A stretch of DNA of 64,000 nucleotides from Tubulanus polymorphus (lineage: Eukaryota; Animalia; Nemertea), in assembly GCF_964204645.1 (NCBI RefSeq), contig NC_134030.1:17940210-18004209 (forward strand), in the 5' to 3' direction. Below are positions 128 through 64,000 of the stretch, in pieces (position 1 is the first letter of the stretch; every line of letters starts with the position of its first letter). A program made the position numbers and the translations under genes. The notes under the pieces were generated by a model. The model saw only the letters and a list, made by a program, of their open reading frames with translations, was not told where the DNA came from and ran no database searches.

Positions 128-1864
128 CTGGAATATAAAGAAATGAAATGTACTTAACTACATAATAGATATACAGGCTCTAATAGGCTGATGCTAAATT
201 CTATAATTTAGTCTAAAATTATAACGATTCTAAAAATTCAATACCTTTATTTTGACAAGATTTTCATTCAATATAGCATTTCTTTCTGTGTTCGTGACCT
301 ATAATTAGAAATTTTATCACGTTATCATAATCAACGACATAACAGTGGGTACTAAATGGAAAAACTGTTGGAATATGCGACAATTACCTTTTCAGTGAAA
401 GCTCGATGATTGGATTGTGGTGTCGTTTCATCACCTTTTGTTGGTTTTCATTGATGTTCTAGGGCAAACAAACACTAGATTTAATTAATCGAATTTTACG
501 TATGACAGATGTGAATAGGACGGTCTCTCGGTGTTGCATGTTAAGGTAACGTTTTTTTGGTCATAATTACCTGATTTTCGTCAACACTTTCCTCCTCCGT
601 CTCATCTACTGACATATTGTCTTTTCCCGATATTTCGTTCCTATCGATATCGGTTTAAGAAAGTAAAAAACATCAATTTTTGCACATGCATTAAGGAAAT
701 TTATAAAATGATTTCGAGTGACGATTTTATTCACCGAATATCGTTCTTTTACTTACGCGCAAGTTTCCAAGAGAGTGGATAAATCCATCGCCCCCCTTGC
801 CATATCGACGAACACAGTCCGTAACCTGCGCTGATCTTGTTTTTATCCCAAGTCCTTGGAGTAATAAGGTTTCAGTCTTATTACTCCAAGCCGAGTCTAA
901 CCCTATTGGAGGACTGTTGACGGCGAGATTGCGACCCATACGAAGTGTTGGCGGCAGGCAACCACCCAGCAGGACTCGAAACCGCCTGCCATTCAATCCC
1001 TCTGATTAAACCCTTACCTTAAAAAAATATCAATCAAATATCAATAGTGCATGTTGTACATACCTACAGGACGGGTGCATGTATACACGACATATGACCT
1101 GTTATAGCACTCGTTGACTACGAGAGGTTTGAATGTGAAATCGCAATCGTTTTTCAATTCGCAATCACTTCTTGCTTTTCCCCACGTTGGGCTGAGCTGG
1201 TTGAATATATTGCGGGGCCAGGCCTGTAGAAAACCAATTTGTATTTGCAATTCAATTAACAAGGTATAGGTCGTCATCTGTGGAAGACGTGTCATAAGTC
1301 CCAATTAGATTTCTTACTTTTAATTAGATTAAATTCATTAAGTGCAAGCAATCATTTTGATAATTGATCTTCTTTCTAATTCAATCTATTAGATGTTATT
1401 CATGATTATGATAAGCTGTCACAGTGCGGAAGTCATTTTCTATTTTGAGTCTCAATTTGTATTCAAAATAATTCGATTTACTAAGTGTAAGTCGACATCT
1501 GCAATAGTTGGCAAGATAATTGTCGTTTAAACTGAGATGGCTTATGTTAGGTTTTATATTGGAGCTAGGGTACTATTACAAATAAAGAGATTATGATTTC
1601 AAAGAGGCGTTGCCTCATTTTTCAGCGTACAGTTCTCGGAACTGCTGGCGTCCTCCGGTCCAGACAGCCATTGTATCATATGGATTGGCATATCGTTCAG
1701 ACAGGAGAGAGATATTTGGTAGGGCGACGACGCCGCGGCATATACATCTAAAATAGAGACAATTATTGATGAAACACTGTGAGTCCGCGTTGTAAAGATA
1801 ATGTTAAATCCCTGCACACTAAGAATAAAAAGAGTCTGAAATGTTTCCTTGAGCTTGTGTAGTT

Positions 1865-1908
1865 TATTCAACGTTTCGACTATATCCTAATAGTCATCTT
1901 CAGGAATA
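1865..1908 (-). ncRNA. Minimal type I hammerhead ribozyme (Penelope/retrozyme type)
   Basis: Minus strand: stem I TATTC, core CTGAAGA(T), stem II GACTA-loop-TAGTC, GAAA, palindromic stem III ACGT, GTT cleavage triplet, stem I' GAATA. Confidence 0.7.
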
Positions 1909-2528
1909 CTGATGTTATCCTTATTATAACCATTGATGAAACACTGTGAGCCCGTGTTGTGAAGATAGTATAAAATCCCTGTACTAGGAATAAAAACGTG
2001 TCCCACTGGTCACCTTCGTAAGTCTGAAGTAACACTACTTACATAATGCGGCCTTTGTTGCTCTATCATCTAAACATCGATGTCATTTATTTCAAATGGT
2101 TATAATATCGACGTATGGAATAGATTAGATAGTACATGAAACAGCTAAAATCTAAAAGGTGAAGAAAGTTCAAATTGATATATTACACCTCGGTTCAGAC
2201 AGTTGAATTTGAGCAACTTTCCTCACGTTGTACTACTGTGCCTGAATATCTAATCGGTTTCATTTGTTTTTCCCAGTATCCGTATAGGACCGGTCATTCG
2301 ACATCTGACTGTATATTTCCCCTGAAATCTAATTCAGTCACTTTATATAATAGCGAATTCGTCTCTAAGAAATGATGAACATAGCTTTCGCAAAACAAGA
2401 CTTTATTAGTATCTCTGTGAATTTCCGCAACATTTTGGTCAATAGTAATTAGAAAAGTAGGCTTTCAGGCCAGAGTACGAGAGTACTAAACACCACTCAT
2501 CACCACAAGTAATTTTTTTCCCTAATAA

Positions 2529-2703
2529 ATGGGAGACAGTGAGTTCCAACTAGAAAACAATAATGTCAATAAAAATCAATATTATTGTCCATATTGTAAA
2601 AAATACATCGATAAACCTTACATGGAAAATGTTAGAAATTATATTGATTCATTAGAAATAAAAGATACAATTGAAATTTTAGAAATATTACGTAGTAAAA
2701 TTG
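2529..2703 (+). pseudogene. 5' remnant of Maverick pPolB
   Basis: Matches 56618-56704 joined to 56996-57083; in-frame 291-bp deletion at ATAAA microhomology, then truncated. Confidence 0.9.
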
Positions 2704-2944
2704 TGACACACATAAACAGTGAGTGCGCGTAACAACAGCTGTGTGTGGATAGATCGATACAGTGAGTCTCTACTGAGAACGGTTATTAATGTGAGTGCTA
2801 TTACTGTAGTACAGTGATTGCGTGTCAACTGTACCCGGATAAATAGATGCTGTGAGGCTTGGGTGAGAACGGTTAATAGCGTGCTTGTTATATAGGGGGA
2901 AGTAATCCCCACTCATCACCACAAGTAATTTGTTTTCCTTATAA

Positions 2945-3271
2945 ATGGGAGATAGAAAAGCATTCTTAGCAACAATAAATAACAGAATAAAACCAGCAAA
3001 AAAACAATTTGAAATAAAAAAGTTAGTTGATGTTACAAAAGAAATTGAACATAAATTATTGAAATTAGAAAAGATAAAAACTAAATATGGAGAGAAAGTA
3101 TCAGCTAATTTAAGCTACTGTAATGTTAGTACATCGCGAGAATTTAAAGTGTTTTTACCCGATAAATGGGTTTCATTGAGTATGGAGGAATTGAAAGATT
3201 TAGTAGGATTTAAAATAATATATCATGGGAAAAATGAAGACGGTCATCATGATTTAGAAATTGTTGATTAA
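2945..3271 (+). CDS. Maverick hypothetical protein (108 aa)
   Basis: Intact ORF with element-like codon usage, preceded by the conserved ACTCATCACCACAAGTAA...TAAATG motif. Confidence 0.7.
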   Translation: MGDRKAFLATINNRIKPAKKQFEIKKLVDVTKEIEHKLLKLEKIKTKYGEKVSANLSYCNVSTSREFKVFLPDKWVSLSMEELKDLVGFKIIYHGKNEDGHHDLEIVD

Positions 3272-3430
3272 ATTTTTAAAAAAATAAATTAATAAAAATA
3301 ATGAATATCTAGAATCCGAAATGACTTATCTGGACAATTTAATTGCTCCACATAGATAGACAAAAGTAGTGAGATATTCAATTATTTTTTTTCATACTCA
3401 TCACCACAAGTAATTTTTTTTCCCTAATAA

Positions 3431-3935
3431 ATGGAACTAGAACAACTACAAACTATCAATATTACAAATAACACTGGTGTTATAAACATATACTACAAGA
3501 AGTGTTCTAAATGTGAATTAGATAAATTAGCTTTAATAGAATTTAGTAAGATTAACGCAATTATTCAACAAAGAAACACATTCAGAAACACTATCTAATT
3601 TGTTGGGTTGTTCAGATGAATTTCTCAAATCATGGATAATATATCAATTCGACAATAAAATGAATATAGATAATTATGGTGAATACTTTCATATTGATCA
3701 TGTGTTGCCGATTTCTAAATTTGATATGAATGATGAATATGATAAGAAGCTAATCTGGAACTGGAGAACTTTAAGACCTTTAGAAAAGAAAGAAAATATA
3801 ATTAAATCTAACAAACTAGATATGAAATTATATTTAGATCAACTGGAAAAAACAAAAAAATTTATTGAATTATGGAACAATAATCCAAATAATGAACGAT
3901 ACGTTGAGGAATTTGATATCAAGGATCCGAAATGA
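3431..3935 (+). pseudogene. HNH endonuclease of the giant-virus type (N-terminal CxxC; frameshifted or deleted near 3550)
   Basis: Start at TAAATG 3431 (KKCSKC); C-terminal LGCS..QF..NYGEYFHIDHVLPISKF..LRPLEKKENIIKSNK. Confidence 0.7.
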
Positions 3936-3972
3936 CTTATCTGGATAATTTAATTGCCGCACAGTGAGATAT

Positions 3973-4344
3973 TTAATTATTTTTTGGTTTTTTTTCTAAA
4001 ATATTAATCCATTTTTTTATTATAAATTTTGGAATTTCAGAAGTACTTTCATTTTTGATAGCAGTTGGTTCAGAATTACTAATATCATGAATTTTATTTG
4101 ATTTCTTATACCAATTACACCCAATCAAAATGAATACAATTACAAATCCAACTGTAAAATATAAATATTTATCAAATATTCTACTATCAGAAGGAGTAGA
4201 AATAACAATATTTTCACCATTTTTATTACTTATTTTTTCTTTTACAGCTTTTTTATATTCTTGTGATTTAATTCCTAATTGTCGAGACCATTCAATTTGT
4301 TTCTGAGTTCTCGGTTTTTTCTTCACTTCTTTCACCTCGCTCAT
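3973..4344 (-). CDS. Maverick small basic membrane protein
   Basis: Lys-rich N-terminus and one hydrophobic segment (LYFTVGFVIVFILIG); TAAATG start. Confidence 0.65.
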   Translation of the reverse strand: MSEVKEVKKKPRTQKQIEWSRQLGIKSQEYKKAVKEKISNKNGENIVISTPSDSRIFDKYLYFTVGFVIVFILIGCNWYKKSNKIHDISNSEPTAIKNESTSEIPKFIIKKWINILEKKPKNN

Positions 4345-4882
4345 TTATTATAGAAATATTTTTACTTTCAATATTTGAAAATGTTATAACTCCAGTTGAT
4401 AATAATGTCATAAATCCACCTAATTGAAATGATAAATATCCAATCCATTTATTTAATTCAGTCATAACTAAATAATCATTTTTTAAATCAGAATATAATC
4501 TATTTTCATCTTCAATTGGTAGTATATAATTACATAATTTACTATAACCTTTTACTACATTTTCTGATATCGCGTCATTAATTCTAGCTGTTCTCGCGGA
4601 TTCATAAATCTTAAATAATCTAATAATTTCATCTGATTTCATTGTATCTAATTCATTATAAGTTAAATTTTTACTGACAAAATTTTTACATTTTCCAGAT
4701 GCTATTAATATTTCTAATTGATGTTTACAATAAAGATAATATTCATAATTATTATTTGTTGTAACATTATTTAAAGCACCATCATCTGGAGTTAATTTTG
4801 TTTCTGTTATTCCTAAATCATCTAAAGTTTTTTCAATTGGAACATCACCATTTTTAGATTTTATTTTCTTTTCACCTCCCAT
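4292..4882 (-). CDS. Maverick hypothetical protein (196 aa)
   Basis: Intact ORF with TAAATG start and a C-terminal hydrophobic stretch, downstream of the ATPase. Confidence 0.7.
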   Translation of the reverse strand: MGGEKKIKSKNGDVPIEKTLDDLGITETKLTPDDGALNNVTTNNNYEYYLYCKHQLEILIASGKCKNFVSKNLTYNELDTMKSDEIIRLFKIYESARTARINDAISENVVKGYSKLCNYILPIEDENRLYSDLKNDYLVMTELNKWIGYLSFQLGGFMTLLSTGVITFSNIESKNISIINERGERSEEKTENSETN

Positions 4883-4913
4883 TTATATAACAAACAAATT
4901 AGTTGTGTTGTTG

Positions 4914-5165
4914 CAACTAGAATTCAACTAGAATGTAACTAGAATTCAACTAGATTAACAAGCTAGTTGAAATATTGTTGTTTTTGTTTATTTCTAGTTA
5001 CATTCTAGTTGATTTTTGTTTCAACTACTAACAACTAGAATTCAACTAGAATGTAACTAGAATTAAACTAGATTAACAAGCTAGTTAAAATATTGTTAAA
5101 TCTATTTGATTTTTGTTACAACTACTAATAACCAGAATTCAACTAGATTAACAAGCTAGTTGAAT
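4914..5165. repeat. Intergenic array of ~11-bp AACTAGAATTC/AACTAGAATGT units in direct and inverted orientation
   Basis: Repeated caactagaattcaactagaatgtaactagaattcaactagattaacaagctagtt blocks; inverted copy at ~4991-5014. Confidence 0.85.
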
Positions 5166-5774
5166 TTAAATAAATTCATATTTAAATGGGTGTTGTAATC
5201 TAAATAGTAATTTTGATCTTTTAATATTTTTCAACTTATCCATATATTCATTATGTAAATCATGTGGAATAATATCATTTTCCTCAAGTGCATTTTTCAT
5301 CGATTTTCTATCTTTATTGTAGAATAAAACTAGAAATCTAATGTTTTCTCTAAAGTCTTTAACAATTGAATTATATTTTTGATTTAAAACCCAAGTTGTT
5401 ATCCCAAAATGTCTGCCAGAAAAAGCTAAATAACATAACTCACTTTCTCTAACTTTTGAATCATGTAGATTAGCACAATCATCTATAATGAATAATGTAT
5501 TTGATCCTTTATAAATATCAATTGCTATTTTTATACAATTATCTAAATTTTCTTTTACTGTTTTAGGATCTAATATAATAAATTTATTATTTCTAGTAAT
5601 ATTTCTATCATAAGTTTGATTAAATTCATATGTTGGACAAAATAATACTATATTATCAAAATAGTTTTCGTAAACAGTTTCTAATAAATTTAATATAAAA
5701 TAAGTTTTTCCACAATTTGTTACACCAGAAATTAACATATTATGAGGCTCAAATATGAATAATTCCTTATTCAT
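5166..5774 (-). CDS. A32/FtsK-HerA family genome-packaging ATPase
   Basis: Walker A GVTNCGKT, Walker B LFIIDD, SGRHFGIT..LNQ motif typical of Polinton and poxvirus A32 ATPases. Confidence 0.92.
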   Translation of the reverse strand: MNKELFIFEPHNMLISGVTNCGKTYFILNLLETVYENYFDNIVLFCPTYEFNQTYDRNITRNNKFIILDPKTVKENLDNCIKIAIDIYKGSNTLFIIDDCANLHDSKVRESELCYLAFSGRHFGITTWVLNQKYNSIVKDFRENIRFLVLFYNKDRKSMKNALEENDIIPHDLHNEYMDKLKNIKRSKLLFRLQHPFKYEFI

Positions 5775-6860
5775 TTATATATTTTTAATTTTACTTGATA
5801 ATATCCATTCATTGAATTTATCTGGCCATCCAACCCATTTTACTAAAGAATATTTTTTTCTTTTAACAGTTTTTGTTTTTAGTACTTTTTCAATTTTATA
5901 TTCTTGTTCTAGATTTTCAGTAGTTAAACTTAATTCTTCTTCGTAAAAGTAGCCATCAACTTCTTCACCATCTAAATCTTCTAATTTATAGACATATGGT
6001 TTTGTTGTTATTACCTTTTTTATTTTATATATTTCTCTAGTAAAATTTCGATCGTATCCTTTGTCAAATATCTTTTTATACTTAGAAATTCTAACATTTT
6101 GACCAACTTTAAATTTAGGTTCACCAAAATCATCTACAAGAAATGCTCCATATAAATTATTCCAAACAATTTCAGCATTTTCAGGTTTTCTAGCATCAAT
6201 AGGTTTCATTCCAATAGAAGAATGATAAGAATTATTATATCCTTCTATAAATTTTGGTAAAACATCAATCCATTTATAAGTATTATTTGCTGTGAAATAT
6301 TTTGATATTCTTGTTCTCAATGTTCTATTAAATCGTTCAACAACTGCTGCTTTTTTATTAGATTTTGTCGAAAAATATTTAATATTATGAAAATCCAAAA
6401 GTCCATGAACTAATGAATTATCAAATTCTTTTCCATCATCAAATTGTATTTTTTCTGGTTTTAGTTTACCACCTGAAAGAAATTTTCTTAAAACATGTGA
6501 TGTTTGTGCAGCATCTTTTCTATAAAGTGGGAAGCTCCATACATAACGACTAAAAATATCAATTATATTCAATATCCACCAATAATCATTATTATCTTTT
6601 TTAAGATTTTTCATATCAATTAAATCTCCTTGCCACTGTTGATCTACATAACTTACCATAGTTTTACGAGTTTTATATTTTCTAACAATTTTTTTATGTG
6701 TTGTATATGTTGGTTGTTCTAACATAAATTCATTTATATCTTTGTATTTAACTAAATTTTGTGGGATTATCTTATCTAATTTATCTTGTTTTACTTTACG
6801 CCATATATTTTTAGTAGAAGAATAAGCAACCGAACTCTCAGGGTTCTTCTTATATTGCCT
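5775..6860 (-). CDS. Maverick retroviral-like (rve) integrase with C-terminal chromodomain; native start lost
   Basis: DDE core WQGDLID / IQFDDGKEF / VVERFNRTL; chromodomain YKIEKVL..LVKWVGWPDKFNEWI. The frame stays open into host-like DNA up to 6992. Confidence 0.92.
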   Translation of the reverse strand, partial: RQYKKNPESSVAYSSTKNIWRKVKQDKLDKIIPQNLVKYKDINEFMLEQPTYTTHKKIVRKYKTRKTMVSYVDQQWQGDLIDMKNLKKDNNDYWWILNIIDIFSRYVWSFPLYRKDAAQTSHVLRKFLSGGKLKPEKIQFDDGKEFDNSLVHGLLDFHNIKYFSTKSNKKAAVVERFNRTLRTRISKYFTANNTYKWIDVLPKFIEGYNNSYHSSIGMKPIDARKPENAEIVWNNLYGAFLVDDFGEPKFKVGQNVRISKYKKIFDKGYDRNFTREIYKIKKVITTKPYVYKLEDLDGEEVDGYFYEEELSLTTENLEQEYKIEKVLKTKTVKRKKYSLVKWVGWPDKFNEWILSSKIKNI

Positions 6861-7230
6861 AAAATTAGTGTATAGCGAGTTATCATTCAACTTAAAATCT
6901 ATCTCTTGTACGTGCTGGTCTCGGAGTACACATTTTAATTTCTTTGAGAGTGTCATAGAGTTAACCAGACTCAAACCGGTACGTAGCGCCGCCTGGATAT
7001 TTTGCGTTTAACTAAAGCGTATTCTGTTTCGCACATAAACCATGATATACCGGGTACTGTGAATATAACAAAAAGATGAATAGTTTATCTGCAGTTGGGT
7101 TTCTAGTTCGTTTATTTTAGCCTCGAGGCACTCCTTTTCTTTCTGAATAAAAACGAAATGATTGTTTTTAGTTCCATGTAGTTCAAATATATCAGATAAT
7201 TAAGCCTACACATTCGGTTTAAATGCCTAC

Positions 7231-10075: not shown

Positions 10076-11104
10076 TGAATTCTACCCAGACGCAGATCGG
10101 TTGATCGTACAGCAGTTACATCATTCTCATGTCTCTGTTGAACAAGTCTGGTGTGCACCGTACCGCGTCACTGGTCATTCTGCTTATTCTGTTCCTGTTA
10201 GGAGCTTTCGGAAATTCAGCTACTATCCTGATAATGATAAGTAACAGATTCCGCGGTTTATCTTACGCTAACTCATCGAATTCCGATTTCAAAATCAAAC
10301 CCCGAATAAATAACGGGGACAATCCCTATTTTAAGATCCCAAAAAAATCCATCATCATCATCGTTTTGTTTGCTAGTGATTTTCTTTACTGTACCACTTT
10401 AACGCTGATGCCCGTGTAACAGTTTGTTCTCATGAGTGAAAACATCGGTCAAATATTCCTAGTGAATTCACTGATCGGTTGTCTTATCTATGAATTTGTC
10501 ATGGCGCTTGCACCATCCATTAGTGCGTGGTTGGTAGTAGCGATATCTCTGGAACGCGCGGCGGTTATTCTCTTCCCGTTCACATCTCGTTTGATATGTA
10601 CACCCAGATTCGCCCGATGCGTCGTTGCTATCATTCTTATTACGAACTTTTCCATAGCTGGTATTCCTTCAGCAGTACTACCGGAGTTTTCAGACCGATT
10701 GTCGGCATGCTACTTCAAATTATCAGACCAATCGATACTCTCCATGGTACCAATCGTCTACGGGTATTTCCTGCCTTTGAAATTGATCTTTCTATCAAAT
10801 TCTGTTATATTTATTCTGTTATTCAGGGGTTCAAAAATAGTTTCGTCCGATCAGAAAACAACAAAATCAAAACGTACGACAATTAATGCTCGTAACAGTT
10901 TCACTTTCATTTCTAGTATTCACACTTCCATCCACTGTCACTGTATTCACACCGATCTCGACTGAATGGAGTGGATTTCTTTTCGACATTTTCGCTCAGT
11001 TTGTATTATGCAATTATGTCATAAATTTTTATATATATATCTTTAATTGGGGCGGGAAATTCGTGAATATTTCTGTACGAAAATCCGCTGTAGAAATGCT
11101 ATGA
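10076..11104 (+). pseudogene. Rhodopsin-family peptide GPCR pseudogene
   Basis: TM1 GAFGN, TM2 ASDFL, TM3 SAWLVVAISLERA, TM6/7 FLVFTLP..NYVINFYIY; premature stops at ~10103 and 10417 and a frameshift at ~10886. Confidence 0.8.
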
Positions 11105-21120: not shown

Positions 21121-22265
21121 ATGAATTCGACATCAAATCACGCGCCGAATGGAAGTCATCAACGAGAAGGAAACCTGCAAGGATCGTACTGTTTCCTCTA
21201 TTTCGTGTACCCCGTGGAGTTGGTGAACACTATGAACCCGTGGGTGAAATGGGTTCACATTATTTGCACGTCGTTCTTTATTGTCTTCGGTCTGATGTCG
21301 AATGTCGTATCATTTATCGTTATGACGTCGCAGAAAATGCGCAAGAGCTCGTTCGCGGTCTACCTGACAGTTTTAGCCGTGAGCGACGGGTGTGATTTGG
21401 TATTGTACGGTATTTTCTGGATTAATTCCATCAGCGCGCTCTCGGGTGGACCCTTGGTCATCGTGGTCGGTGGCGTGTTGGCAAAAACTTTTCTCAAATA
21501 TATAAGTTTGTATTTCGCGGCATTGAGCAGTTGGTTGGTAACATTGATCAGTGTTGAACGTTTCATCGTTGTCTGTTTTCCGATGTCGGCGTTGCGTTTG
21601 TGCCGCCGTCAAACGGCATGTGGCGCCTCCTGTTGCACGGTTCTCGGCGTCCTATGCGTTATGCTAGTCGACGGTTCCCTGCGTCCGTGGATGGACTATG
21701 ACGTCACTTGTTGGCTACCCAGTCAACGCTACCAGTCACCCACGTTAGGGGCTCTTATGATTGGCTACTTGCCTTTTATCATTTTAAAAATCTGTTGCGT
21801 CAGTATAGTCGGAGTCTTGCGCAGGCGCAGTGCGAGAATACCGATCGCCGCTGTCAAACTGACCAATAACAGAGTCACTCGTCTCATGCTGTTCGTCATG
21901 CTCGTTTTTCTCGTATTACTATTTCCTGGTACAATTACTATAACGCTCGCAGGCGTGCTCCCACAATTACGACAAGTATTGAAGTCTGTACCGTATCGGG
22001 TCCGATGTCCGTCATCCTTTGGGAAATAAGCTACTCGGTCAATTTCCTCATTTACGCGATGACCAGTGGAAAGGTTAGGGAAGCGTTCGTCGAGAGGTTT
22101 CTAGTTTGGTCGACAGGTTGCGCTCGTAGCGACTGCCGATCGTGGAATCGAATGAATCTGAAAACAAAAAAGTGCGAAGAGACACCGGTGTCTCCGAAAC
22201 CCGTGGTAAACGGTAGTGAAGGGACACCGGTGTTCGATGATTCATATCAGATCTCCAACCCATAA
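21121..22265 (+). pseudogene. Single-exon rhodopsin-family peptide GPCR (FMRFamide-receptor-like) with one frameshift near 22000
   Basis: VFGLMSN, YLTVLAVSD, SSWLVTLISVERF, FLVLLFP; TM7 YSVNFLIY lies in a second frame. Confidence 0.8.
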
Positions 22266-24340: not shown

Positions 24341-25067
24341 CTTGAACTCTCTTCCTAAGAACTACTTCCCTGATTTGGCTAAGGCTTGAGAGGCAGATTC
24401 TCACCTTCGGTAGATCAGTAGTTGAATGATCTGAAACGAGAAATAACCAACCGAATTAGAAAAATCAGGCTTCGATCTCATACATCAAGCCTAGTTTTCA
24501 CGAACGCTTCCACGCTGAAAGATCCTGATTACATGAACGCTTCCACGCTTCCACGCCCCGATCAGGAAAAAGCAACTCGGCTTGAAATTGAATGTGCCCT
24601 TTTGTTTAAAATCATTTGCCTCGCCTTATTAAAATGTTACCTTCTCTACTTTTGGGATCGATATAGCGACGACTGAATGTGCCCTGCTATTAAATGTATT
24701 AAATGTAATAAATATTTCTAAAATAATTTACGCAGATATGATATTCTAATGTATAAAATATTAATGTATAAAATATTACGCTCCATGTTGGAGCGATAAT
24801 GAACATCTCACAATACAGAAAAGAAAAATAAGTCTGGAAGCTTTTCTTGAGCTATACATTATTCCGACATTTCACTTCTTTGGGGAATACTGAAAAGTTC
24901 CTGAAGATGACTAATAGGATACAGTAAAATGTCAAATAAAGTGTAACTCGAGAATGTATTCTTCTTTTCCGTATTGTGGGATTTTTACCGCATTATGGCC
25001 GCAGAGAGTTAACTATACTTTCAACAAACTTTTAAGCTACTGGCCTCATGACAGAGAATAAACTTAC

Positions 25068-25316
25068 CTGGACATATTTTTACGTCGCAGTATTCCCAAC
25101 GTACCGCGGGATCAGTGGTATAACACCAGGGTCCTCCTGTTGTATTGTCGGGGTTCCTACAATAATTCGCAGCCGTATTCCGGTCGGAGAGCATATTGTA
25201 ACGGTCATGTTTGTGAGGTGATCGAGAATTCCAGGCTTGACACGTTTTCCCAGATAGCACTTGATTCAAAGTTCCCCTGTATTCTCTTCCCATCGTGGTC
25301 ATTTTGCATTCTTTAA
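25068..25316 (-). CDS. Kringle-domain exon (249 nt, phase 1-1)
   Basis: C..GREYRG..SGKTCQAW..NYCRNPD..GPWCYTTDPAVRWEYC; tttcag acceptor, gtaag donor. Confidence 0.9.
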
Positions 25317-26391
25317 CTGAAATTTGTCACGGCGTAGGATGTTAACTAAGAGATATAACTACATTAACTAAACGAGAGTGCATTTGTTTGTCCGTTGTGG
25401 CCAGTGAATTATCCGAAAATATCTCTTTAACGCACAAATCGACATACGGAAACTTCAATTGTCATACGAAACACTTATCGTGTGGAAATGACTAAATAAT
25501 GATGTTGTTCGTAGGTTCAGTTGTGGTAGGCAAAACAAGTTCTGCTGTCTTGCTTTCAGATGTCGTTATTGGTTGGCCACATGGTTTGTCTTCAGAAAAA
25601 TAATGTGCGTGTGAAAGTAACTAGGAGTCCAGGGACACGATACCCACTTGGGAAGAGGTTTAAAATGCTCAACAATCTAACAATTCCAATGGTCAACTCC
25701 CCTGGTGACCATATACAAAGACCAATGACCTGGAAACTCACCACAATCATAGAACATCTCAGCGGCTACAATTTTGCAATTGATTGTGGTAACAAAATAT
25801 GCACAGGTACGAATATAATAACGAAATACTAAGTTATTGTATTATTCAACGCCCCTGCGAATGAAAGTTAAAACCACAACAGGTGTCAGTTGTCCAAAAG
25901 TGAGTTGAACTTTGCTTATCCTGTGGATAATTGACGTAGTGAAAATAATACTACATTGTTACCGTAGTATTATCAGAAACCAGATTCAAAAAGGTTTTGT
26001 GAGTAAAAACATAGTTATACTACTGTGTCAATTGTCGCTGTGGCATTCATTCCCAGTTAATTTCAATCAAATTCTTAGCAACTTGACCCTGATGATCCTG
26101 ACCAAACACTGTGTCCGGATAGTGAACATCTCACAATACAGAAAAGTAAAATAAGTCCGAAATCTTTTCTTGAGCTATACATTATTCCGACATTTTACTT
26201 CTTTGGGGAATACTAAAAAGTTCCTGGAGATGACTAATAGGATACAGTAAAATGTCAAATAAAGAGAAAACTCGAGAATTAATTTTTCTTTTCTGTATTG
26301 TGGGATCTTTACCGCGTTATGGCTGCAGGCAATTAACTATACTTACAGCAAACTTTAAAGTTACTGGCCTCATGACAGAGAATTTATTTAC

Positions 26392-26640
26392 CTGGACATA
26401 TTTTCACGTCGCAATATTCCCAACGTACCGCGGGATCAGTGGTATAACACCAGGGTCCTCCTGTTGTATTGTCGGGGTTCCTACAATAATTCGCAGCCGT
26501 ATTCCGGTCGGAGAGCATATTGTAACGGTCATGTTTGTGAGGTGATCGAGAATTCCAGGCTTGACACGTTTTCCCGGATCGCACTTGATTCAAAGTTCCC
26601 CTGTATTCTCTTCCCATCGTGGTCATTTTGCATTCTTTCA
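26392..26640 (-). CDS. Kringle-domain exon (249 nt)
   Basis: Same kringle motifs and splice sites. Confidence 0.9.
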
Positions 26641-27633
26641 CTGAAATTTGTCACGGCGTAGGATGTTAACTAAGAAATATAACTACATTAACTAAACGAG
26701 AGTGCATTCGTTTGTCCGTTGTGGCCAGTGAATTATCCGGACATATCTCTTTAACGCACGAATCGACTTACAGAAACTTCAATTGTCATATGAATCACTT
26801 ATCGCGTGGAAATGATAAAATGAGGATGTTGTTTGTAGGTTCAGTTGTGGTAGGCAAAACAAGTTTTGCTGTCTTGCTTTCAGATGTCGTTATTGGTTGG
26901 CCACATGGTTTGTCTTCAGAAAAATAATGTGCGTATGAAAGTAACTAGGAGTCCAGGGACACGATACCCACTTGGAAAGTGGTTTCAAATGCTCAACAAT
27001 TTAACAATTCCAATGGTCAACTCCCCTGGTGACCATATACAAAAATCACAATTTTGCAATTGATTGTGGTAACAAGATATGCACAGGTACGAATATAATA
27101 TCGAAATACTAAGTTATTGCATTATTCAACGCACCTGCGAATGAAAGTCAAAACCACAACAGGTGTCAGTTGTCCAAAAATGAGTTGAACTTTGCTTATC
27201 CTGTGTATAATTGACGTAGTGAAAATGGTACTACATTGTTACCGTAGTATTATCAGAAACAAGATTCTGTCAATTGTCGCGGTGGCATTCATTCCCAGTT
27301 AATTTCAATCAAATTCTTAGCAACTTGCCCCTGATGATCCTGACCAAACACTGTGTCCGGATAGTGAACATCTCACAATACAGAAAAGAAAAATAAGTCC
27401 GAAAGCTTTTCTTGAGCTGTACATTATTCCGACATTTTACTTCTTTGGGGAATACTGAAAAGTTCCTGAAGATGACTAAAAGGATACAGTAAAATGTCAA
27501 ATAAAGAGAAAACTCGAGAATTAATTTTTCTTTTCTGTATTGTGAGATCTTTACCGCATTATGGCCGCAGACAATTGACTATACTTACAGCAAACTTTTA
27601 AGCTACTGGCCTCACGACAGAGAATTTATTTAC

Positions 27634-27882
27634 CTGGACATATTTTCACGTCGCAGTATTCCCAACGTAACGCGGGATCAGTGGTATAACACCAGGGTCC
27701 TCCTGTTGTATTGTCGGGGTTCCTACAATAATTCGCAGCCGTATTCCGGTCGGAGAGCATATTGTAACGGTCATGTTTGTGAGGTGATCGAGAATTCCAG
27801 GCTTGACAAGTTTTCCCGGATCGCACTTGATTCAAAGTTCCCCTGTATTCTCTTCCCATCGTGGTCATTTTGCATTCTTTCA
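27634..27882 (-). CDS. Kringle-domain exon (249 nt)
   Basis: Same kringle motifs and splice sites. Confidence 0.9.
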
Positions 27883-54400: not shown

Positions 54401-56553
54401 GTTGATTCTACTTGCTTAAAGGGCACATGTACAATTAATAGAATATCATGTCATACTTTTTCTATGAAGTAATATGTTCACAAGTTATAATATGCTACTG
54501 ATTATCATTTCAGTCATTTCCTGAAATACACTTATAAATCGGCAGTTTGAGCAGGTGCTCACTGTATCTAGATGTGTGCAGGTACGTGTTCCTGACGTCA
54601 TCTCTATTGAAAGCTTACTGTTTACTCAGTTTCTATTCATTTAAAAGGGGTATTTAAGATTTTTTAAATTAATGATTTCTAAAGTATTGTTGGTGCCATC
54701 GTATATGATATGATAAACATATATGTTAGTGGGTGCATCATATAGCCGTGATATATAAGAGGGAACAAATTATGACTATCAATTGGATACGTATATATCA
54801 ATTGTATACGCTAGAGAGCGCATACGTGCTTAGGTTTATCACCGACATACCGTGAAAAAAGCAACAGTGAGTTTGGTGAACTGTGTAAACAAAGTGAAGA
54901 GTAAATGAACGACGCATTTATAAGAAATCATTCCTTTGCGAAATAAGCATTGCGTTTATCAATCACGAAAAGTACAATTCATTGGCCATGTGGCCAAAAG
55001 AAAAAACGTTTGAGACGCTGAAGCGAGTTTCGGTGGGCTGCAATCAAACCCACGCAAGTATGGCGCCAGAGAGGCGATCCGATGGTTATTGGACAGTGTC
55101 TGTCATCGAGAGGATTTCCGAGGTTGCGCCAGACGTGATGACACGATCAACTGGGACTATCGTAGCTACGTCACCAAGCAATGATGCTGACCTACTATTT
55201 TGATATCGGAAAAGCTGACCGTGTGAAGAAATTGATATCTGTTATCACTCATCACCGCTCAATGAGATACGCGTGAGAATCCCACCTGTTGCTGACGCAC
55301 TGTTGCCGGGGCACCGCTCCAGGGGAAATTAGTACGTATGATCACAAATGTGAAAATGCAGTGTTAAGTATTATAGCAATACAACACGACAAGTTTATCG
55401 CTTTTCTAGCAATCAGTAAATGCTCCCTATTGTGCGTACTGATCACGCCGCTTAAAGCGTATGTATGTTTCAATGCGCGAAATTAAATAGTTCCAATTGT
55501 CACCTAATTTTACTTTGCTTTCCGGAAGAAATTCAGATGTGTCGTTACTTTTACGCAAAGAGTGTAAACATGTAACAATTAATTATTGGAAATAATACGA
55601 TAGTTTTGTGCTTGAAGATAAGATACTGCCCGCGCGCATCAATCGACCGCGCTTTACTACAAGTATTCAAATAGGCCTGCAACTGCTGTATCGAATCGAT
55701 GATGAGTGTTGCATTGTATTTATCTCTCTCTAAATCGCAAATTTTTCTCTGGCTTTGCGCATAGTTTATTTCAAGTAGTGAGAAAAAAATGGTACGGTTA
55801 GCTTTGGTGCTACTGATGTCGATTTCTATTCTTTTATCTCATCATTCCAGAGAGCAGTGGAAATATGTAGAGATTTAGGGGGGATGAGGGTTATTGAGGC
55901 TTGGGTCACATAATTTTTCTGAGATCGGTAGATCACATTTTGCGGCCGTAAAAGCGCTGCGAACCGTAAAAGCGTTCATTGTTTGTGTTTTCCCGATCTC
56001 CGTTTACCTTACGTTGTACATGTTTTATATATAAGTGTAACACGGAAAATCGCAATGCCGGGTATTGATGTGCAGTCGCGGCCATGGCCATGTTTCAGAA
56101 GGTACCGGTATAATACCACGGAATATAAATGTTCTAAACTCGAAAGGGGGGACACCTTTAGATGTATATGAATCCAATGGGTAATATGTAAATAGTATGT
56201 TCGGTAAATAATGTTTGTTATGTTTTAAGATACGTTTTCATTTACCTCCTAAATGAATGCTGTTTTTCCTCCTCCATATACCATAGAAGTGATTGGAGTG
56301 TAATGAATATTCGTATTCGTATTAAAAGTATTGAGAGCAATCTGATCGAATAGTATTAAAACATGTGTGTAACTGAAGCTTTTATATATATATATATACG
56401 TAAAAACAAGAATTTATTTATTGAATCTAAAAAATTTTTATTATCCGTTCACCACGTTTGAGTGTGGTTATCGTTCTATCCTGAAGTGAAGCTACAGCTG
56501 ACAGTAATTAGAATATCAGGCTTTCATACCAGAGTACGAGAGTACTAAACACC

Positions 56554-56620
56554 ACTCATCACCACAAGTAATTTTTTTTTCCTACTCATCACCACAAGTA
56601 ATTTTTTTCCCTAATAAATG
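56554..56620 (+). promoter_or_regulatory. Conserved Maverick promoter-like motif ACTCATCACCACAAGTAA-T-rich-TAAATG (partly tandem-duplicated here); also at 2495-2531, 2911-2947, 3396-3433 (+) and 62978-63013 (-)
   Basis: Near-identical ~37-bp sequence ending at the ATG of several unrelated ORFs. Confidence 0.8.
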
Positions 56621-59600
56621 GGAGAGAGTGAGTTCCAACTAGAAAACAATAATGTCAATAAAAATCAATATTATTGTCAATATTGTAAAAAATACATCGA
56701 TAAATCTAATAAAACTAAACATGAAAAATCTTCAAATCATATACAAAATTTAATAGATTTTGAAACTCCAGAAAATTCCAATGAAAGAAAAGAACGATTA
56801 GAAAATATGAATGTGGATGAAATAAAATGTGAAGTTTGTAATGAATTTATAGTAAAAAGGAATTATAATAGACATCTCGAATCACAAAAACATTATAAAA
56901 ATTTAAATAAAAATGTTTTAGGATTAGAATATTTTGATAATAAACCTCAACAAGTAAAAGAATCAACTTCAAAAACAAAATCCATTTCAAATAAACCTTA
57001 CATGGAAAATGTTAGAAATTATATTGATTCACTAGAAATAAAAGATACAATTGAAATCTTAGAAACATTACATAGTAAAATTGGTCCTGCAGCAATTATA
57101 TTTAGATTTTTTAAAGGTACAACAATAGAAGATTATAGTAAATTTAATGAAATAATAGAAAAAATACTAGATTTGATAACAGATGTTGAATATCCAAAAA
57201 TTAGTATCTCTGGGAAAGTAAGTTTTATTAAGTCAGAAGAAAAAATGGATTATAATATTCAAACACACTCTGAAGAAATAATTTCAAAAACACAAATAAA
57301 AGAGAAGTTAGAAAAAATATTAAATGAATTTAAACGTCATATTGAAGAAAGATATTTTGAGGTTTCTGGTTTAACATTGAATGAAATTATATATTTAGAT
57401 TTAAATGTTTATAATACAAAAAGAAATAAAACATCAAAAAGTAATAAAATGTTTAAAAATGATTCAAACTTTACAACAGAAAAAGATATGAAAGCATCAA
57501 GTTATATTAAATTACCATTTAAAACTAATGCAGTAATTAATATACAGAATGATGATAATAAATGTTTTCTGTGGGCGATTATAAGTTGTTTACACCCAAC
57601 AGAAGATATGACGCATAGTTTTAGAATAACAAATTACCGGAAATATGAAACATTATATAAAATTGATCAATATCCAGTAACTATAAAAATGATTCCTAAA
57701 ATAGAAAAAGTTAATAATTTAAAAATAAATGTATTCGAATTAATGCAATTACCAAAGACAAAAGGTGAAAATATTAAAGATTATACATTGGAAGCTTTAT
57801 ATTTAACAGAATATTATGATGATGAAAATGCTATAGATTTGTTATATTACAAAAAAGATGAAAATGAACATTATATGTGGTTAAAACAAATTGATTTATT
57901 CTTTAGAACAGAAAGTGATCATCATAATAAAATTTATCTATGTAGAAAATGTTTATCTAAATTTATGATTGAGAATACATTATTAAAACATAAAGAATTA
58001 TGTGATAATAAAGATTTTTGTAAATTAATAATGCCAACAGAAAAAGATTATAAATTGAAATTTACTAATCATAAATTTAAAAATATTGTTCCATTTGTAA
58101 TTTATGGGGATTTTGAATCGTTGAATAAAGAATTAACTGATCAAGATAGAAAAGAAATATATAACAAAAAGCAATTATTAAAATCAATGGATAAAGGAAG
58201 TGAATTAAATGAAGACATAATACAAGACCCACCAATTATAAATACAATTAAAAAAGTTCATCAAAGAGCTGCTGCTTATGGAATTTATATAAAATCAAAT
58301 TATCCCGAATTATATGAAAGTCAATATATTTCTTTTAGAGGTGAAAATGTAGTTAATGATTTTTGTGATAAAATTATTGAATTAGAAAGTGATTTTGCAA
58401 AATTATTAAACAAAAATAAAAGAATAGTTATGACAAAAGAAGATGAAATTGATTTTAATTATGCAACTCATTGTTGTTATTGTGAAAAACGTTTTTATTC
58501 ATTTGATAAAAGAGTTAGAGATCATGATCATTTAAATTCAAAATATCGTGGAGCTGCTCATGAAGATTGCAATTTACAAGCTAAAAAAGTAAATTTCGTA
58601 CCAATATTATTTCATAATTTATCAGGCTATGATACCCATCTATTTATAAAACAATTATCGGGAAAATTGGGCGCAATTAATCAAGAAATAGAAGAATATA
58701 ATGCTATGAATGAAGCAAATGTAAGAAAATATGATTTTAAACTATTAGCTAAAACATCTGAAAATTATATTTCATTTCAATTTGGTTGCATTAGATTTTT
58801 AGATTCTTATAGATTTCTAGCAAGTTCATTAGATAATTTATCAAAATCATTTTATAATGATTTCAAAATAATGATTTTATTATAACTCGATATTATTATC
58901 CAAATGAACAAGATTTTAAATTATTGAGATATAAAGGCGCAATTCCTTATTCATTTTATAAAACACATGATGATTTTAATATAACAGAATTATGAAGATC
59001 AATTTTATGATAAATTAAAAGAGGAGTATGTGAAAGACGAAGTTTTTGATAGAACATTAAATATTTGGAACCATTTTAAGATGAAAAATCATGGCGAATT
59101 AGTTGATTTATATTTAAAATCAGATGTTATGATATTGGCTGACATATTTGAAAAGTTTAGAGAAGTTAATCTAAACCATTTTAATGTTGATCCTTGTTAT
59201 TGCTACTCTAGTCCTGGTTTAACCTGGCAATGTGGTTTAAAATATACAAATGTAGAATTAGATTTATTAAAAGAACCAGATATGGTTTTATTATTTGAAA
59301 AATCAATTAGAGGTGGAATTAGTGGTGTTATGGGAGATAGGTATTTTAAAGCAAATGATGAATATAAATTATTATATATTGACGCCAATAATTTATATGG
59401 TTGGGCAATGATGCAACCTCAACCATATAAAAATTTTATATTAACAGAAGTTGAAAATGATGATAAAACTGATTGGGAAAGCGCAATTGCGAGTTTAAAA
59501 GACGAAGCACCAATTGGTTATTTCTTTGTAGTTGATTTAGAATATCCTGAAAATATAAAGTTTAAAACAAGAAACTTACCTTATTGCCCAGAACATTTAA

Positions 59601-61694
59601 CTGTAGATGATAGTTATTTAAGTGAATACCAGAAGAAAATAAAACCGAAAGATCATGTTTTTACAGAAAAATTAATACTTACTCAAAATAATAAATACAA
59701 TTATATTGTTCATTATAGAATGTTAAAATTTTATCTAAAACAAGGAATGAAATTAAAGAAAGTACATAGATATATTGAATTTAATCAATCAAAGTGGTTA
59801 GAAAAATATATAGATTTCAATACTCAACAGAGAACAATATCAAAAAATGATTTTGAAAAAGATTACTTTAAACTGATGAATAATGCGTTCTATGGCAAGA
59901 CTTGTGAAAACATAAGAAATAGAAATGATATTGAGTTAGTTAGTAATGGTAAAAGATTAAGGCATTTACAATCGTATCCGAAATTTATAGGCAACAGAAT
60001 ATTTGATGAAAATTTAGCAGCAGTTAAAATGAGGAGAACTTCAATGAAGTTCAATAAACCTATATTTATTGGTGCATCAGTTCTAGAAATTTCAAAATTA
60101 TTAATGTATCAATTTTACTATAACATATTACAACCCCATTTTGGAGAAAAAAATATAGAAATATTATATTTTGATTCTGTAACAGCTGACACCCCAATAT
60201 TATTAAAATGTAATAATAAAATATTGGTAAGAAGAATTTCAGAAATAATTCCAAAACAAAATGAATGTTATATTTCATATGGTGAAAAAGAATTAATACA
60301 AATAAATGGATTAATGGATGTTTGGACGAGAAATGGATGGAAAAAATTAAATAAAATTATCAGACATAAAACAAATAAGAAAATCTATAGAGTTAGAACT
60401 AAATTAGGATTTGTAGATGTTACAGAAGATCATAGTTTAATTAAACAAAATGGTGATGAAATAAAACCAACTGATATAAAAATTGGAGATGAATTATTAC
60501 ATAAAAGATTTTACCCAAGAATGAATCATATGTCATTTGATGATAATTGATAATATTTATAATATAGAACCCGAAACATTGGAAGAAAAAGAATATTTTA
60601 TCAAAGGATTTTTCATGGGTGATGGTTCAGCAGGTGTGTATAATTATGTTAGTGGAACTAAATATTGTTGGTATTTATGCAATCAAGACTTAAAATTATT
60701 AGAAAGAATTAAGAAATTCTGTGAAGAAGTTTATCCAAATAAAACTTTTAAAATCATGGATGTTATGAAATCATCAGCAGTTTATAGAATACATGTGAAT
60801 AATCCTAAAGATTTTGCTATAAAATATAATAACGAATTCTATATTCATGCAATAGTGAAAAGTAATACTTCAACTAAAGAAAAGATAGTTCCAGATTATG
60901 TATTAAATGCAAAAAATAATTTAAAAAAATGGTTCTTCATTGGATTCTACGCAGCCGATGGTACTAAAAGTTTCAAAAACCGCAAAACAATATCTTTAGC
61001 TCAAAAAGGAAAAGTTGCTATATCAGGATTAAATATATTATGCAATTCATTAGGTTTTAATATGAATATTGGATTGATTAAATCTAAACCAAATTGCTTT
61101 AATATAAGCCACACAGAAAATGAGATAACTGAAGAAGTTAAAGATTTATTTGAAATATATAACCCAACAGATTATGTTTATGATTTATCAACTGAAGATG
61201 GTACATTTAACTGTGGATTTCCATTAATAGCCAAAAATACTGACGCCTACATACTAAAAATAAAAACTGATAACATAACAAAAGACTTAAAAACATTAAA
61301 ACATCATTTTGATTTTAGTAATTACCCTAAAGATCATGAATTGTTTAGTAATGATAATAAAAAGATTCCTGGTAAGTTTAAAGATGAATTAGGAGGTGAT
61401 GAAATGATTGAATTTGTTGGGATAAGAAGTAAAATGTATAGTTACAGAACAAAAGATCATGAAGCTAAAAAGTTAAAAGGAATAACAAAACATGTGGTTG
61501 ATAAACATATAGAATTTCAAGATTATATAAAGTGTTTATATAAATCAATTGTAATGAAACACAAAATGAATTGTTTAAGATCAGAAGATCATGAGATGTA
61601 CATTAATGAAGTTGAAAAAACTAGTTTAAATCCATTTGATGATAAAAGGCATATTTTAGATGATGGTATAAAAACATTACCTTATGGTTATTAA
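56618..61694 (+). pseudogene. polB: Protein-primed family B DNA polymerase with intein; disrupted at ~58860-59030 and ~60545
   Basis: N-terminal Zn fingers, ExoI YGDFES, endonuclease-VII-like insert RDHDH..YRGAAH..CNL, ExoII FHNLSGYD, FLDSYRF, motif A YIDANNLYG, motif B KLMNNAFYGK, split motif C YFD^TD, C-terminal DDKR. Confidence 0.95.
60176..61238 (+). mobile_element. Intein (~355 aa) with LAGLIDADG homing endonuclease in PolB motif C
   Basis: Block A SVTADTPILL, block B VDVTEDHSL, LAGLIDADG helices FIKGFFMGDG and FFIGFYAADG, block F YVYDLSTE, block G LIAKN|T. Confidence 0.93.
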
Positions 61695-62980
61695 AACATA
61701 AAATCAATATCATCAAATTCGAAATCATTATTGTCTTCTTCATTTTCATGTTCTTCTTCCATTCCATTTTTCTCATTTAAATAAAGTTCTATCTTGTTCC
61801 ACATTTCATCTCGCTCTCTTTGTTTCTTTTTGTTTGTTAATTCATCAAATGGAATTATAATATCTAGGTTTAAATAATTTACAATCTTATTCAAAAAGAA
61901 TTCATAATTTATTGAATCTGTTATTCTATTTTCCAAATGATACATTAATATTTGTTTAAATATTTTTTTTATATTTTCCATATCTTCTTCTGTTAATTTA
62001 GGTTTTTCATAATAATCGTTAAATAATAAATATAAATACATTTTCTTTTGTTTTGTGTTAAATGTTGGTGGAATAATTGTTTTTATAATATCTTTTTTAG
62101 TTATTTCACCATTTTTATTTTCTATTATTTTCATTTTTTCAAGCCATTGCATATATTCTGGTGTATGATCTTCTATAGAAAATATTTTAAAAATTTCATC
62201 AAGATAATTTAATTTTGGATCTATAAGAAAATTTCTAATTTTTTCTTCATCCCATAAATTCTTTTGCCATCCACAATCAACACAAAATAACACAGTACCT
62301 TCTTGTCTTAAGGTCGCATAAATACATTGTGGGCATTTTTGTTTATAATTTATTGGTAATAGATTTTCATTAAGCTCTTGGTATTTTCTTACGTTTTCTT
62401 TATGTTTTACTGTTCTATTATGTAGATTTGAATTACTTGTTGTAATAATCAATTTACAATATTTACAATAATATGTTTTTCTTGTTAATTCATTATATTG
62501 TTTTTCTAACTTTTCAACTGTTTCTTCATTATCTGGTAACGTTTTCTCATATTTTATTTTTTCTAATAAATTATTTTTTCTTTCATTGAATTCAGTTTCA
62601 AATTTATTAGAAATTTTATCTATGTGTGCTTTACTAAATTGATGATTCTCCCAATCTTCTATATTGTCAGGGCTATATTTTACTTGACAAGGCTCACAGA
62701 AATTATTCTTTACATTATTCTTGTTATAAAATAAAAAAGGTCTTTTCCAAATAACTTCAGGTTCAACTTCAGCAGAATTATTATCAACATTAGCTGTTGC
62801 GCCATTAATTCTACACTTCTCTGAATGTTTTTTAACATAATTTCTTGAGAATAATTGATTACATTTTGGGCAGTTTATTTTAGGGGGTTTATAATTTTCA
62901 TCATGTTTTTTCATATGTCGAGCCTTATTACTTTTTCTTAGAAGTTCACCACAAATTTCACATGCTATCTTCTCGTCCAT
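61691..62980 (-). CDS. Multi-zinc-finger protein with a C-terminal poxvirus/NCLDV VLTF3 (A2L)-like late transcription factor domain
   Basis: C2H2-type fingers, zinc ribbon CPQC..EGTVLFCVDCG, then PKLTEEDMENIKKIF..SINYEFFLNKIVNYL..KKQRERDEMWNKI, resembling the VLTF3 C-terminus. Confidence 0.65.
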   Translation of the reverse strand: MDEKIACEICGELLRKSNKARHMKKHDENYKPPKINCPKCNQLFSRNYVKKHSEKCRINGATANVDNNSAEVEPEVIWKRPFLFYNKNNVKNNFCEPCQVKYSPDNIEDWENHQFSKAHIDKISNKFETEFNERKNNLLEKIKYEKTLPDNEETVEKLEKQYNELTRKTYYCKYCKLIITTSNSNLHNRTVKHKENVRKYQELNENLLPINYKQKCPQCIYATLRQEGTVLFCVDCGWQKNLWDEEKIRNFLIDPKLNYLDEIFKIFSIEDHTPEYMQWLEKMKIIENKNGEITKKDIIKTIIPPTFNTKQKKMYLYLLFNDYYEKPKLTEEDMENIKKIFKQILMYHLENRITDSINYEFFLNKIVNYLNLDIIIPFDELTNKKKQRERDEMWNKIELYLNEKNGMEEEHENEEDNNDFEFDDIDFMF

Positions 62981-63036
62981 TTATTAAGGAAAAAAATTAC
63001 TTGTGGTGATGAGGTAATTTTTTTATGTTATAAATA

Positions 63037-63834
63037 ATGGTAGAATTAAAAGAATACAGAATATTTGTTGATTCTAGAAAACTTATAAATTATAAATCTC
63101 ATAATTTATTAGTACAATTAGATAGAGAATTTAAGAATTGTGTAGATTTAAAATTAGTAAATATAAGTTTATGTAATTCTTTTTATAATATATCGGATAA
63201 AACTGATGAACATAGAAGCCTTCTTATTTTTGATAAACTTGAAAAAAAATGGATTCAACTTATGCTTACACCAGGATTATATAATTTAGAAACATTAGCG
63301 CAAGAAATTAATAGAAAAGCTCGGATTAGATTAGGTAATGGTAATTCCAAATTTAATATTAAATTCATAAAAAGTGAGAGCTCTAATAAAATTAAAATAA
63401 AGCTTGATGATGAACTTATTAAACTTGATAAATCTGATCCATTGATGACAAGAAGACATACTTACACGGTAAAAAAACCTATAGCTAAACTATTAGGAAT
63501 TACTCCAAATCAATTTGGTGGAAACAAACACGGTAACTCAAATATAATACCTTTTACACACTTTTATATTTATTGCAATTTAATCGATCCTACAAAAACA
63601 TTCGAAGCAACTAAAGATACAACATGTAATTCTGGTTTACTAAACATTTTACCATTGAAGAATGTTAAACAATTTGGAACGCAAATAAATTATAATTTAA
63701 CAGAATGTGATTTTAAACCTTGCATTCCTAAATTTAATAATTTTAGATTAGAAATTAGAAATCATAATGGATACTTAATTGATTTAAATAACTTTCCTGT
63801 GATATATGAATTAGTTATAAGATGTAAAGAGTAA
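63037..63834 (+). CDS. Minor capsid (penton-like, single jelly-roll) protein
   Basis: IFVDSR, NSFYNI, PGLYNL, KLLG, FYIYCNLI, LEIRNHNGYLIDLN pattern of Polinton and virophage pentons. Confidence 0.75.
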   Translation: MVELKEYRIFVDSRKLINYKSHNLLVQLDREFKNCVDLKLVNISLCNSFYNISDKTDEHRSLLIFDKLEKKWIQLMLTPGLYNLETLAQEINRKARIRLGNGNSKFNIKFIKSESSNKIKIKLDDELIKLDKSDPLMTRRHTYTVKKPIAKLLGITPNQFGGNKHGNSNIIPFTHFYIYCNLIDPTKTFEATKDTTCNSGLLNILPLKNVKQFGTQINYNLTECDFKPCIPKFNNFRLEIRNHNGYLIDLNNFPVIYELVIRCKE

Positions 63835-63850
63835 TTTTTCACCTATAAAA

Positions 63851-64000
63851 ATGAATATAACTGTTGGACCGAGTATATGTTTTGGGTTTGATTTTAAACG
63901 TGAGAAAGAAATGAAATTTAACATTAATGATGTAATAACACATATCAAAAATGTTGTATTTTCTAATGAAACAACATTTGAGTATGAAACAACAATAGAT
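63851..64000 (+). CDS. 5' end of the next Maverick ORF (truncated by the window)
   Basis: Open frame MNITVGPSICFG... to the window end, preceded by GAGTAA-N16-ATG. Confidence 0.6.
   Translation, partial: MNITVGPSICFGFDFKREKEMKFNINDVITHIKNVVFSNETTFEYETTID

Follow-up and report, generated by a model that had tools for sequence, protein, structure and literature searches.

A VLTF3-like protein fused to zinc fingers is encoded by a Maverick element

Poxvirus VLTF-3 (vaccinia A2L/OPG127; PF04947 and PF08792) consists of a C4 ribbon followed by a helical VLTF3 domain with a TFIIB-like fold, and A2L has been described as derived from TFIIB (bioRxiv 2022.11.22.517515). VLTF2 and VLTF3 are called undetected outside Nucleocytoviricota in the available text of one study (PMC11253617). 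VLTF3 has been reported in coral polintoviruses (PMC11131425, citing Krupovic and Koonin 2016), a VLTF homolog called mimivirus-like in MELD viruses (PMC8502044), and a VLTF3 homolog in about 30% of two clusters of Polinton-like viruses (PLVs; bioRxiv 2026.06.19.733378).

We analysed a stretch of 64,000 nucleotides from the nemertean Tubulanus polymorphus (hereafter the window), which carries a gene whose product has the same succession of ribbon and helical domain. Unlike poxvirus VLTF-3, this protein has 209 additional N-terminal residues with four fingers, and an acidic tail. Its gene lies on an integrating element, and among the ORFs of the part of the element within the window none was seen for an RNA polymerase, VLTF-2 or G8. 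The initial annotation had placed the gene outside the standard Maverick set; this is true, but VLTF3 was already reported in a subgroup of polintoviruses (PMC11131425), so that its presence in a Maverick is not new by itself.

The fusion gene and its C-terminal domain

The gene and the parts of its product are as follows.
61691..62980, minus strand: zinc-finger-VLTF3 fusion gene, 429 aa, intact ORF without internal stop
62813..62962, minus strand: fingers 1-2 (C2H2 and C2HC, residues 7-56), weakly like the tandem fingers of CTCF
62402..62698, minus strand: fingers 3-4 (residues 95-119 and 172-193), with U1/JAZ-type spacing (Pfam)
62273..62335, minus strand: C4 zinc ribbon (residues 216-236), whose cysteines align with the A2L ribbon of entomopoxvirus VLTF-3
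61769..62224, minus strand: helical VLTF3 domain (about residues 253-404) with a predicted cyclin/TFIIB-like fold (Pfam, model, fold matches)
61694..61765, minus strand: acidic tail, residues 406-429, 50% D/E

The ORF had been annotated as intact and convergent with the gene for the protein-primed family B polymerase (pPolB), and this was confirmed, the last pPolB frame ending in a stop that overlaps the one of the fusion gene at TTAA 61691-61694. The proposed series of several fingers, ribbon, helical C-terminus and acidic tail was also recovered, as four fingers, a C4 ribbon, seven predicted helices and a tail in which half of the residues are D or E. The fingers occupy residues 7-26 (C2H2), 37-56 (C2HC), and 95-119 and 172-193 (both long-spaced C2H2). 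Fingers 1-2 matched CTCF (phmmer, E 0.001), the finger at 172-193 matched Pfam zf-U1 (27.4 bits, cut-off 22), and fingers 3-4 gave a weak match to the RNA-binding protein ZFa (E 0.084). An Atlas search with residues 1-209 returned finger matches only, all below 0.9. The ribbon, with a CxxC-x13-CxxC spacing, precedes the helical domain; taken by itself it had no match to A2L_zn_ribbon (PF08792) in Pfam.

The VLTF3 identity of the C-terminal part, which had been proposed from the sequence, was borne out by Pfam and by profile comparison. Residues 210-410 matched Pox_VLTF3 with 26.8 bits (E 4.9e-6) and residues 291-410 with 28.5 bits (E 1.4e-6), for a cut-off of 25. The whole 429-aa protein gave zf-U1 only, without Pox_VLTF3, and Pox_VLTF3 was not reported by Pfam for the full-length relatives P0003, P0004 and P0005 either; the family is therefore easy to miss in whole-protein Pfam scans. 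Pox_VLTF3 was carried by 27 of the 30 Atlas matches (score 0.94), and the family profile aligned with that of entomopoxvirus VLTF-3 over 135 columns with a probability of 95.9% (hhalign, E 5.7e-9). Identity of the domain to entomopoxvirus VLTF-3 is about 24%, and for each of six proteins the pairwise score exceeded those of all 300 shuffles (z 11-15).

A search with the domain among 1.84 billion representatives gave four matches, P0003, P0004, P0005 and P0006. Of these, P0006 alone (E 7e-5, 27% identity over residues 7-190) could be identified as a protein of a virus. It is a standard VLTF3, with Pox_VLTF3 (E 1e-24) and the A2L ribbon, and shares 60-63% identity with named VLTF-3 proteins of entomopoxviruses. 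No homolog was returned by word-indexed searches, whether the query was the 429-aa protein or its domain, and sequence searches of the PDB returned finger and ribbon matches only.

The structure of the domain was predicted with a pLDDT of 82.8 and seven helices from an alignment of nine rows, five of which are of entomopox type; the prediction from the single sequence had a pLDDT of 42.5. The best viral structural match of the model was cowpox VLTF3 (BFVD, E 3e-6, TM 0.62). At E<=0.001, six of the eight BFVD matches were named VLTF3 or late transcription factor, and three of the top five were poxviral, with Megaviricetes VLTF3s trailing the poxviral matches by just 10- to 100-fold in E-value. 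Foldseek found no match at E<=0.001 among solved structures (PDB). Cyclin-box proteins including TFIIB made up 16 of the top 17 VIA rows, with Z-scores of only 5.0-6.2 and chain identities taken partly from entry titles; this weak cyclin/TFIIB-like fold agrees with the proposed derivation of A2L from TFIIB (bioRxiv 2022.11.22.517515). In conclusion, residues 210-410 are, judging by profiles and predicted structure, a real VLTF3/A2L with a probable TFIIB-like architecture, to which four fingers have been added. The best viral matches of the domain are poxviral, an apparent affinity that could be inflated by the AT bias common to both groups (each about 20% GC) and by the entomopox rows of the alignment.

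The Maverick element and its relatives

The fusion gene lies in a block of 24% GC that starts near 56.5 kb and reaches the end of the window; the Maverick copy itself runs on beyond 64000. A second copy is present near the left end of the window.
56618..61694, plus strand: pPolB gene, in three separate frames, with two U1-type fingers at the N-terminus
60176..61238, plus strand: LAGLIDADG intein within the D-T-D catalytic motif of pPolB, split over two frames
63037..63834, plus strand: 265-aa gene with a weak DUF5901 match (E 0.03)
2444..6956, no strand assigned: second, internally deleted copy, with a pPolB 5' remnant, three copies of a 17-mer, ATPase and integrase
5166-5774, minus strand: A32-like packaging ATPase of the second copy (Pox_A32, 50.1 bits)
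5775-6956, minus strand: rve integrase with chromodomain of the second copy (35.7 bits)

The second copy shares 5' sequence with the first and supplies the A32-like ATPase and the rve-chromodomain integrase, which identifies the element as a Maverick. Two further genes of this copy, one of 108 aa and one HNH-like and broken (from 3431 on), both lie behind a cassette with the 17-mer. The 265-aa gene of the first copy presumably encodes a minor capsid protein, to judge by resemblance. The pPolB gene had no Pfam polymerase match; it was recognised by its motifs and by the 83% identity of its core to the intact pPolB of a related locus, L001. Its intein (TIGR01445, 34.5 bits; LAGLIDADG_3, 30.6 bits) lies at what we take to be the classical pol-c site. 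As the intein is missing from the L001 pPolB and is skipped by 82 reads of a DNA run from the same species (X6), it is polymorphic among copies; homing-endonuclease insertions are known in polinton pPolBs (PMC11071308).

Reads of the same-species DNA run covered all 30 bins, mostly with 85-99% likeness, which indicates that the family has many diverged copies. In run X1 the summed contig depth over 56338-64000 was about 20,000-150,000, compared with about 600-3,000 on the left flank, where depth is not a copy number and the flank itself may be repetitive. This excess is far above the few-fold excess seen in run X6, and could reflect RNA or amplification. The marine metagenome run X5 contributed a small share (68 records, mostly partial) and was not used for habitat. 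No RNA run was among those listed for the gene, which argues in neither direction. A TTTCA..CCAGAG-type motif was observed at the left ends of both copies (56518-56545 and 2460-2487) and at the pPolB-side end of L001 (about 6310-6340); it is a candidate terminus or target preference. On the host side (8000-54000), inspection by eye showed GPCR-like ORFs (10129-10965 and 21121-22265), kringle-like exons in repeated form (25021-27868) and ORFs resembling methyltransferases, all of which suggest that the host is an animal, probably an invertebrate.

P0003 and P0004 have the identical order of fingers, ribbon and VLTF3 domain, P0004 matching zf-C2H2_jaz with 26.6 bits (Pfam); in P0005 the VLTF3 domain follows a short cysteine-rich N-terminus. 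Three divergent elements, at 33-46% identity, have retained both an intact frame of the fusion and its domain order. In L001, the fusion gene is convergent with an intact pPolB that has no intein, so that the convergent VLTF3/pPolB layout is conserved. Between the window and L001, uncorrected pN was 0.32 for the VLTF3 gene and 0.09 for pPolB, and uncorrected pS 0.35 and 0.51, respectively, with possible saturation at such AT content. Scans of viral contigs with the domain, pPolB, ATPase, promoter motif, family alignment and P0005 found no Maverick locus, nor did scans of prokaryotic genomes.

Gene starts and promoters

Poxvirus late promoters have an upstream T-rich tract with a spacer of about 6 nt. 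The vaccinia intermediate and late initiator is TAAAT, where slippage of the polymerase adds a poly(A) leader (PMC6211774). Two promoter regions of the element were delimited.
56555..56620, plus strand: pPolB promoter, with two tandem 17-mers, a T-run, a 6-nt spacer and TAAATG
62971..63039, no strand assigned: divergent promoter of the VLTF3 and 265-aa genes, with a 17-mer flanked on both sides by GTAA, a T-run, a 6-nt spacer and TAAAT

Leaving out the start of the integrase ORF and the duplicate pPolB remnant, a TAA/ATG junction was present at 7 of 9 gene starts in the window and at 3 of 3 in relatives, compared with 21 of 481 other ATGs and none of 14 host-side ORFs. TAAA at -3 to -6, touching or overlapping the ATG, was found at all 12 gene starts, against 123 of 845 ATGs (14.6%). 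With T at -3 these starts depart from the context usual in animals, and Pol II, given a TATA box adjoining the ATG, would begin transcription within the ORF. The T-run (at least 6 T among the 8 positions from -14 to -7) accompanied 8 of the 12 starts and 5.1% of 877 TAAA sites (Mann-Whitney p 4e-6); 4 of 8 starts had it when four that share one duplicated cassette were removed. In entomopoxvirus loci, the TAA/ATG junction occurred at 7 of 20 ORFs, VLTF-3 included, and the T-run was weak, with 6 T reached in 2 of 7.

Six copies of the 17-mer are present in the window, for 0.17 expected. It precedes pPolB (twice), the VLTF3 gene, the pPolB remnant and two small genes, as well as the 265-aa gene in reverse orientation, and it was not found before the ATPase or three other genes. 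Allowing up to 3 mismatches, it is missing from both relatives, L001 and L002; the feature that is conserved sits nearer to the ATG. As it precedes pPolB and VLTF3 and not the ATPase, and is missing from the relatives, a replication-gene or feedback site peculiar to this family is a likelier reading of the 17-mer than a late-gene target. A stretch of 43 nt of the divergent promoter is 93% identical to the pPolB promoter and start, and the U1-type fingers at the N-terminus of pPolB (56618-56917) resemble those of the fusion protein (33% over 39 aa, pairwise E 2e-6). Together, the common promoter and the likeness of the fingers hint that the fingers came from the polymerase gene of the element.

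AATAAA was found 42 times on the coding strands of the window for 42.5 expected, and 46 times in L001 for 44.3 expected, a comparison of low power without nuclear control; this corresponds to about one AATAAA every 220 nt of Maverick coding strand. Five-T runs are depleted on the coding strands of the Maverick ORFs of the window and L001 (z about -3.4). The early terminator of poxviruses, T5NT, also seemed depleted (6 vs 11.7), a reading that was rejected since T-runs are depleted in general.

Possible roles of the protein and comparison with known systems

With odds that we place a little short of even, the fusion protein may act on the TAAAT-type promoters of the Maverick together with an RNA polymerase supplied by a pox-like virus that co-infects the cell. 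Element DNA would then be present inside the cytoplasmic factory of the helper, whose polymerase would start in the AAA and, as in vaccinia at TAAAT, add a 5' poly(A) leader by slippage. The place of the helper's A2 would be taken by the ribbon and cyclin-like fold, and the fingers would hold the protein on DNA or RNA of the element, perhaps through the family-specific 17-mer in front of pPolB and VLTF3, thereby biasing transcription towards the parasite. In a wider and somewhat more tentative proposal, this animal Maverick lineage would be made up of virophages of pox-like viruses. Practically every gene would have a pox post-replicative promoter, and an A2L captured and joined to fingers of their own would reprogramme the helper polymerase onto parasite DNA.

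Maverick-related elements were found in entomopoxvirus occlusion bodies (PMC11296320), which is in favour of a helper. The suggestion of the initial annotation that a helper-virus polymerase is involved received support that is real but indirect: it is favoured by the poxviral nearest viral matches, by the TAAAT gene starts with upstream T-run, and by AATAAA not being depleted. On the other side, we know of no helper virus for this host, the integrated copy is nuclear and beyond the reach of a cytoplasmic polymerase, and a helper would supply its own A2. In addition, VLTF3 is kept by presumably nuclear viruses that have no RNA polymerase (PMC11253617; bioRxiv 2026.08.29.747986, in the parts available), and therefore needs no viral polymerase.

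These last points lead to a rival that we judge unlikely but the most serious, in which the TFIIB-derived VLTF3 recruits host Pol II, with a host or element TBP, and the fingers give DNA specificity. The origin of A2L from TFIIB (bioRxiv 2022.11.22.517515) and the TFIIB/cyclin matches of the domain agree with such a nuclear switch, as do the retention of VLTF3 by the polymerase-less mriyaviruses and ariadnaviruses, the chromodomain of the integrase, the nuclear location of integrated copies and the TBP-like genes that PMC8502044 lists in related viruses; an activator might well have such an acidic tail. However, the initiator overlaps the ATG, which would leave a leader of only 2-3 nt without slippage, a TATA at the proper distance is absent, AATAAA is frequent in the coding strands, and the nearest viral matches belong to cytoplasmic poxviruses.

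We consider it improbable that the protein is a decoy, which would bind the helper polymerase or A1/G8-like partners and block late transcription of the helper as a virophage-style weapon. The VLTF3 gene does change much faster than pPolB (pN), its pPolB promoter cassette makes early production of the protein likely, and its ribbon has diverged too far to match the A2L ribbon profile. Nevertheless, neither the fold nor the key residues have been lost, the AT content of the element may have led to saturation of synonymous sites, and such a weapon would probably be self-defeating, the element's own promoters being of the type that needs late factors. Least probable of all is that the U1/JAZ-type fingers bind RNA, for instance dsRNA formed by the convergent genes, with the VLTF3 part as a passenger in decay whose role in transcription is lost or secondary: fingers 3-4 are of RNA-binding types and the pN of the gene is near its pS, but the frame and domain order persist in the three divergent elements, and the VLTF3 ORF is intact in the window copy although the adjoining pPolB is broken.

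The yeast cytoplasmic virus-like elements pGKL1/2 replicate by protein priming. Like the Maverick, they are AT-rich and have a TAAAN initiator with a conserved upstream motif; unlike it, they have genes for a pox-like RNA polymerase and a capping enzyme of their own, and their upstream motif does not resemble the 17-mer (PMC6211774, text available). Mriyaviruses and ariadnaviruses also have VLTF3 without a viral RNA polymerase, but in the sources available they are Nucleocytoviricota that have VLTF2 too and no DNA polymerase. The Polinton-like viruses associated with entomopoxviruses are Maverick-related elements proposed to be hyperparasites of poxviruses, and VLTF, transcription and promoter are absent from the main text describing them (PMC11296320). 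Coral polintoviruses, MELD viruses and Zephyr-group PLVs share with the present family a VLTF3 homolog in a Polinton-class element, and the available parts of the reports on them give neither a domain architecture nor an analysis of promoters, nor any affinity to poxviruses.

The family is a further case against VLTF3 being restricted to Nucleocytoviricota, as stated in the available text of PMC11253617. It bears on gene expression in animal Mavericks and on their possible need of a helper virus, and on what VLTF3 does in the absence of a polymerase of its own. A finger-fused VLTF3 and TAAATG promoters in Mavericks were not found in the open-access literature, whose figures and supplements may hold cases. 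Compared with the literature found, what appears to be new is the fusion to fingers, the poxvirus proteins as nearest viral matches and the promoter pattern.
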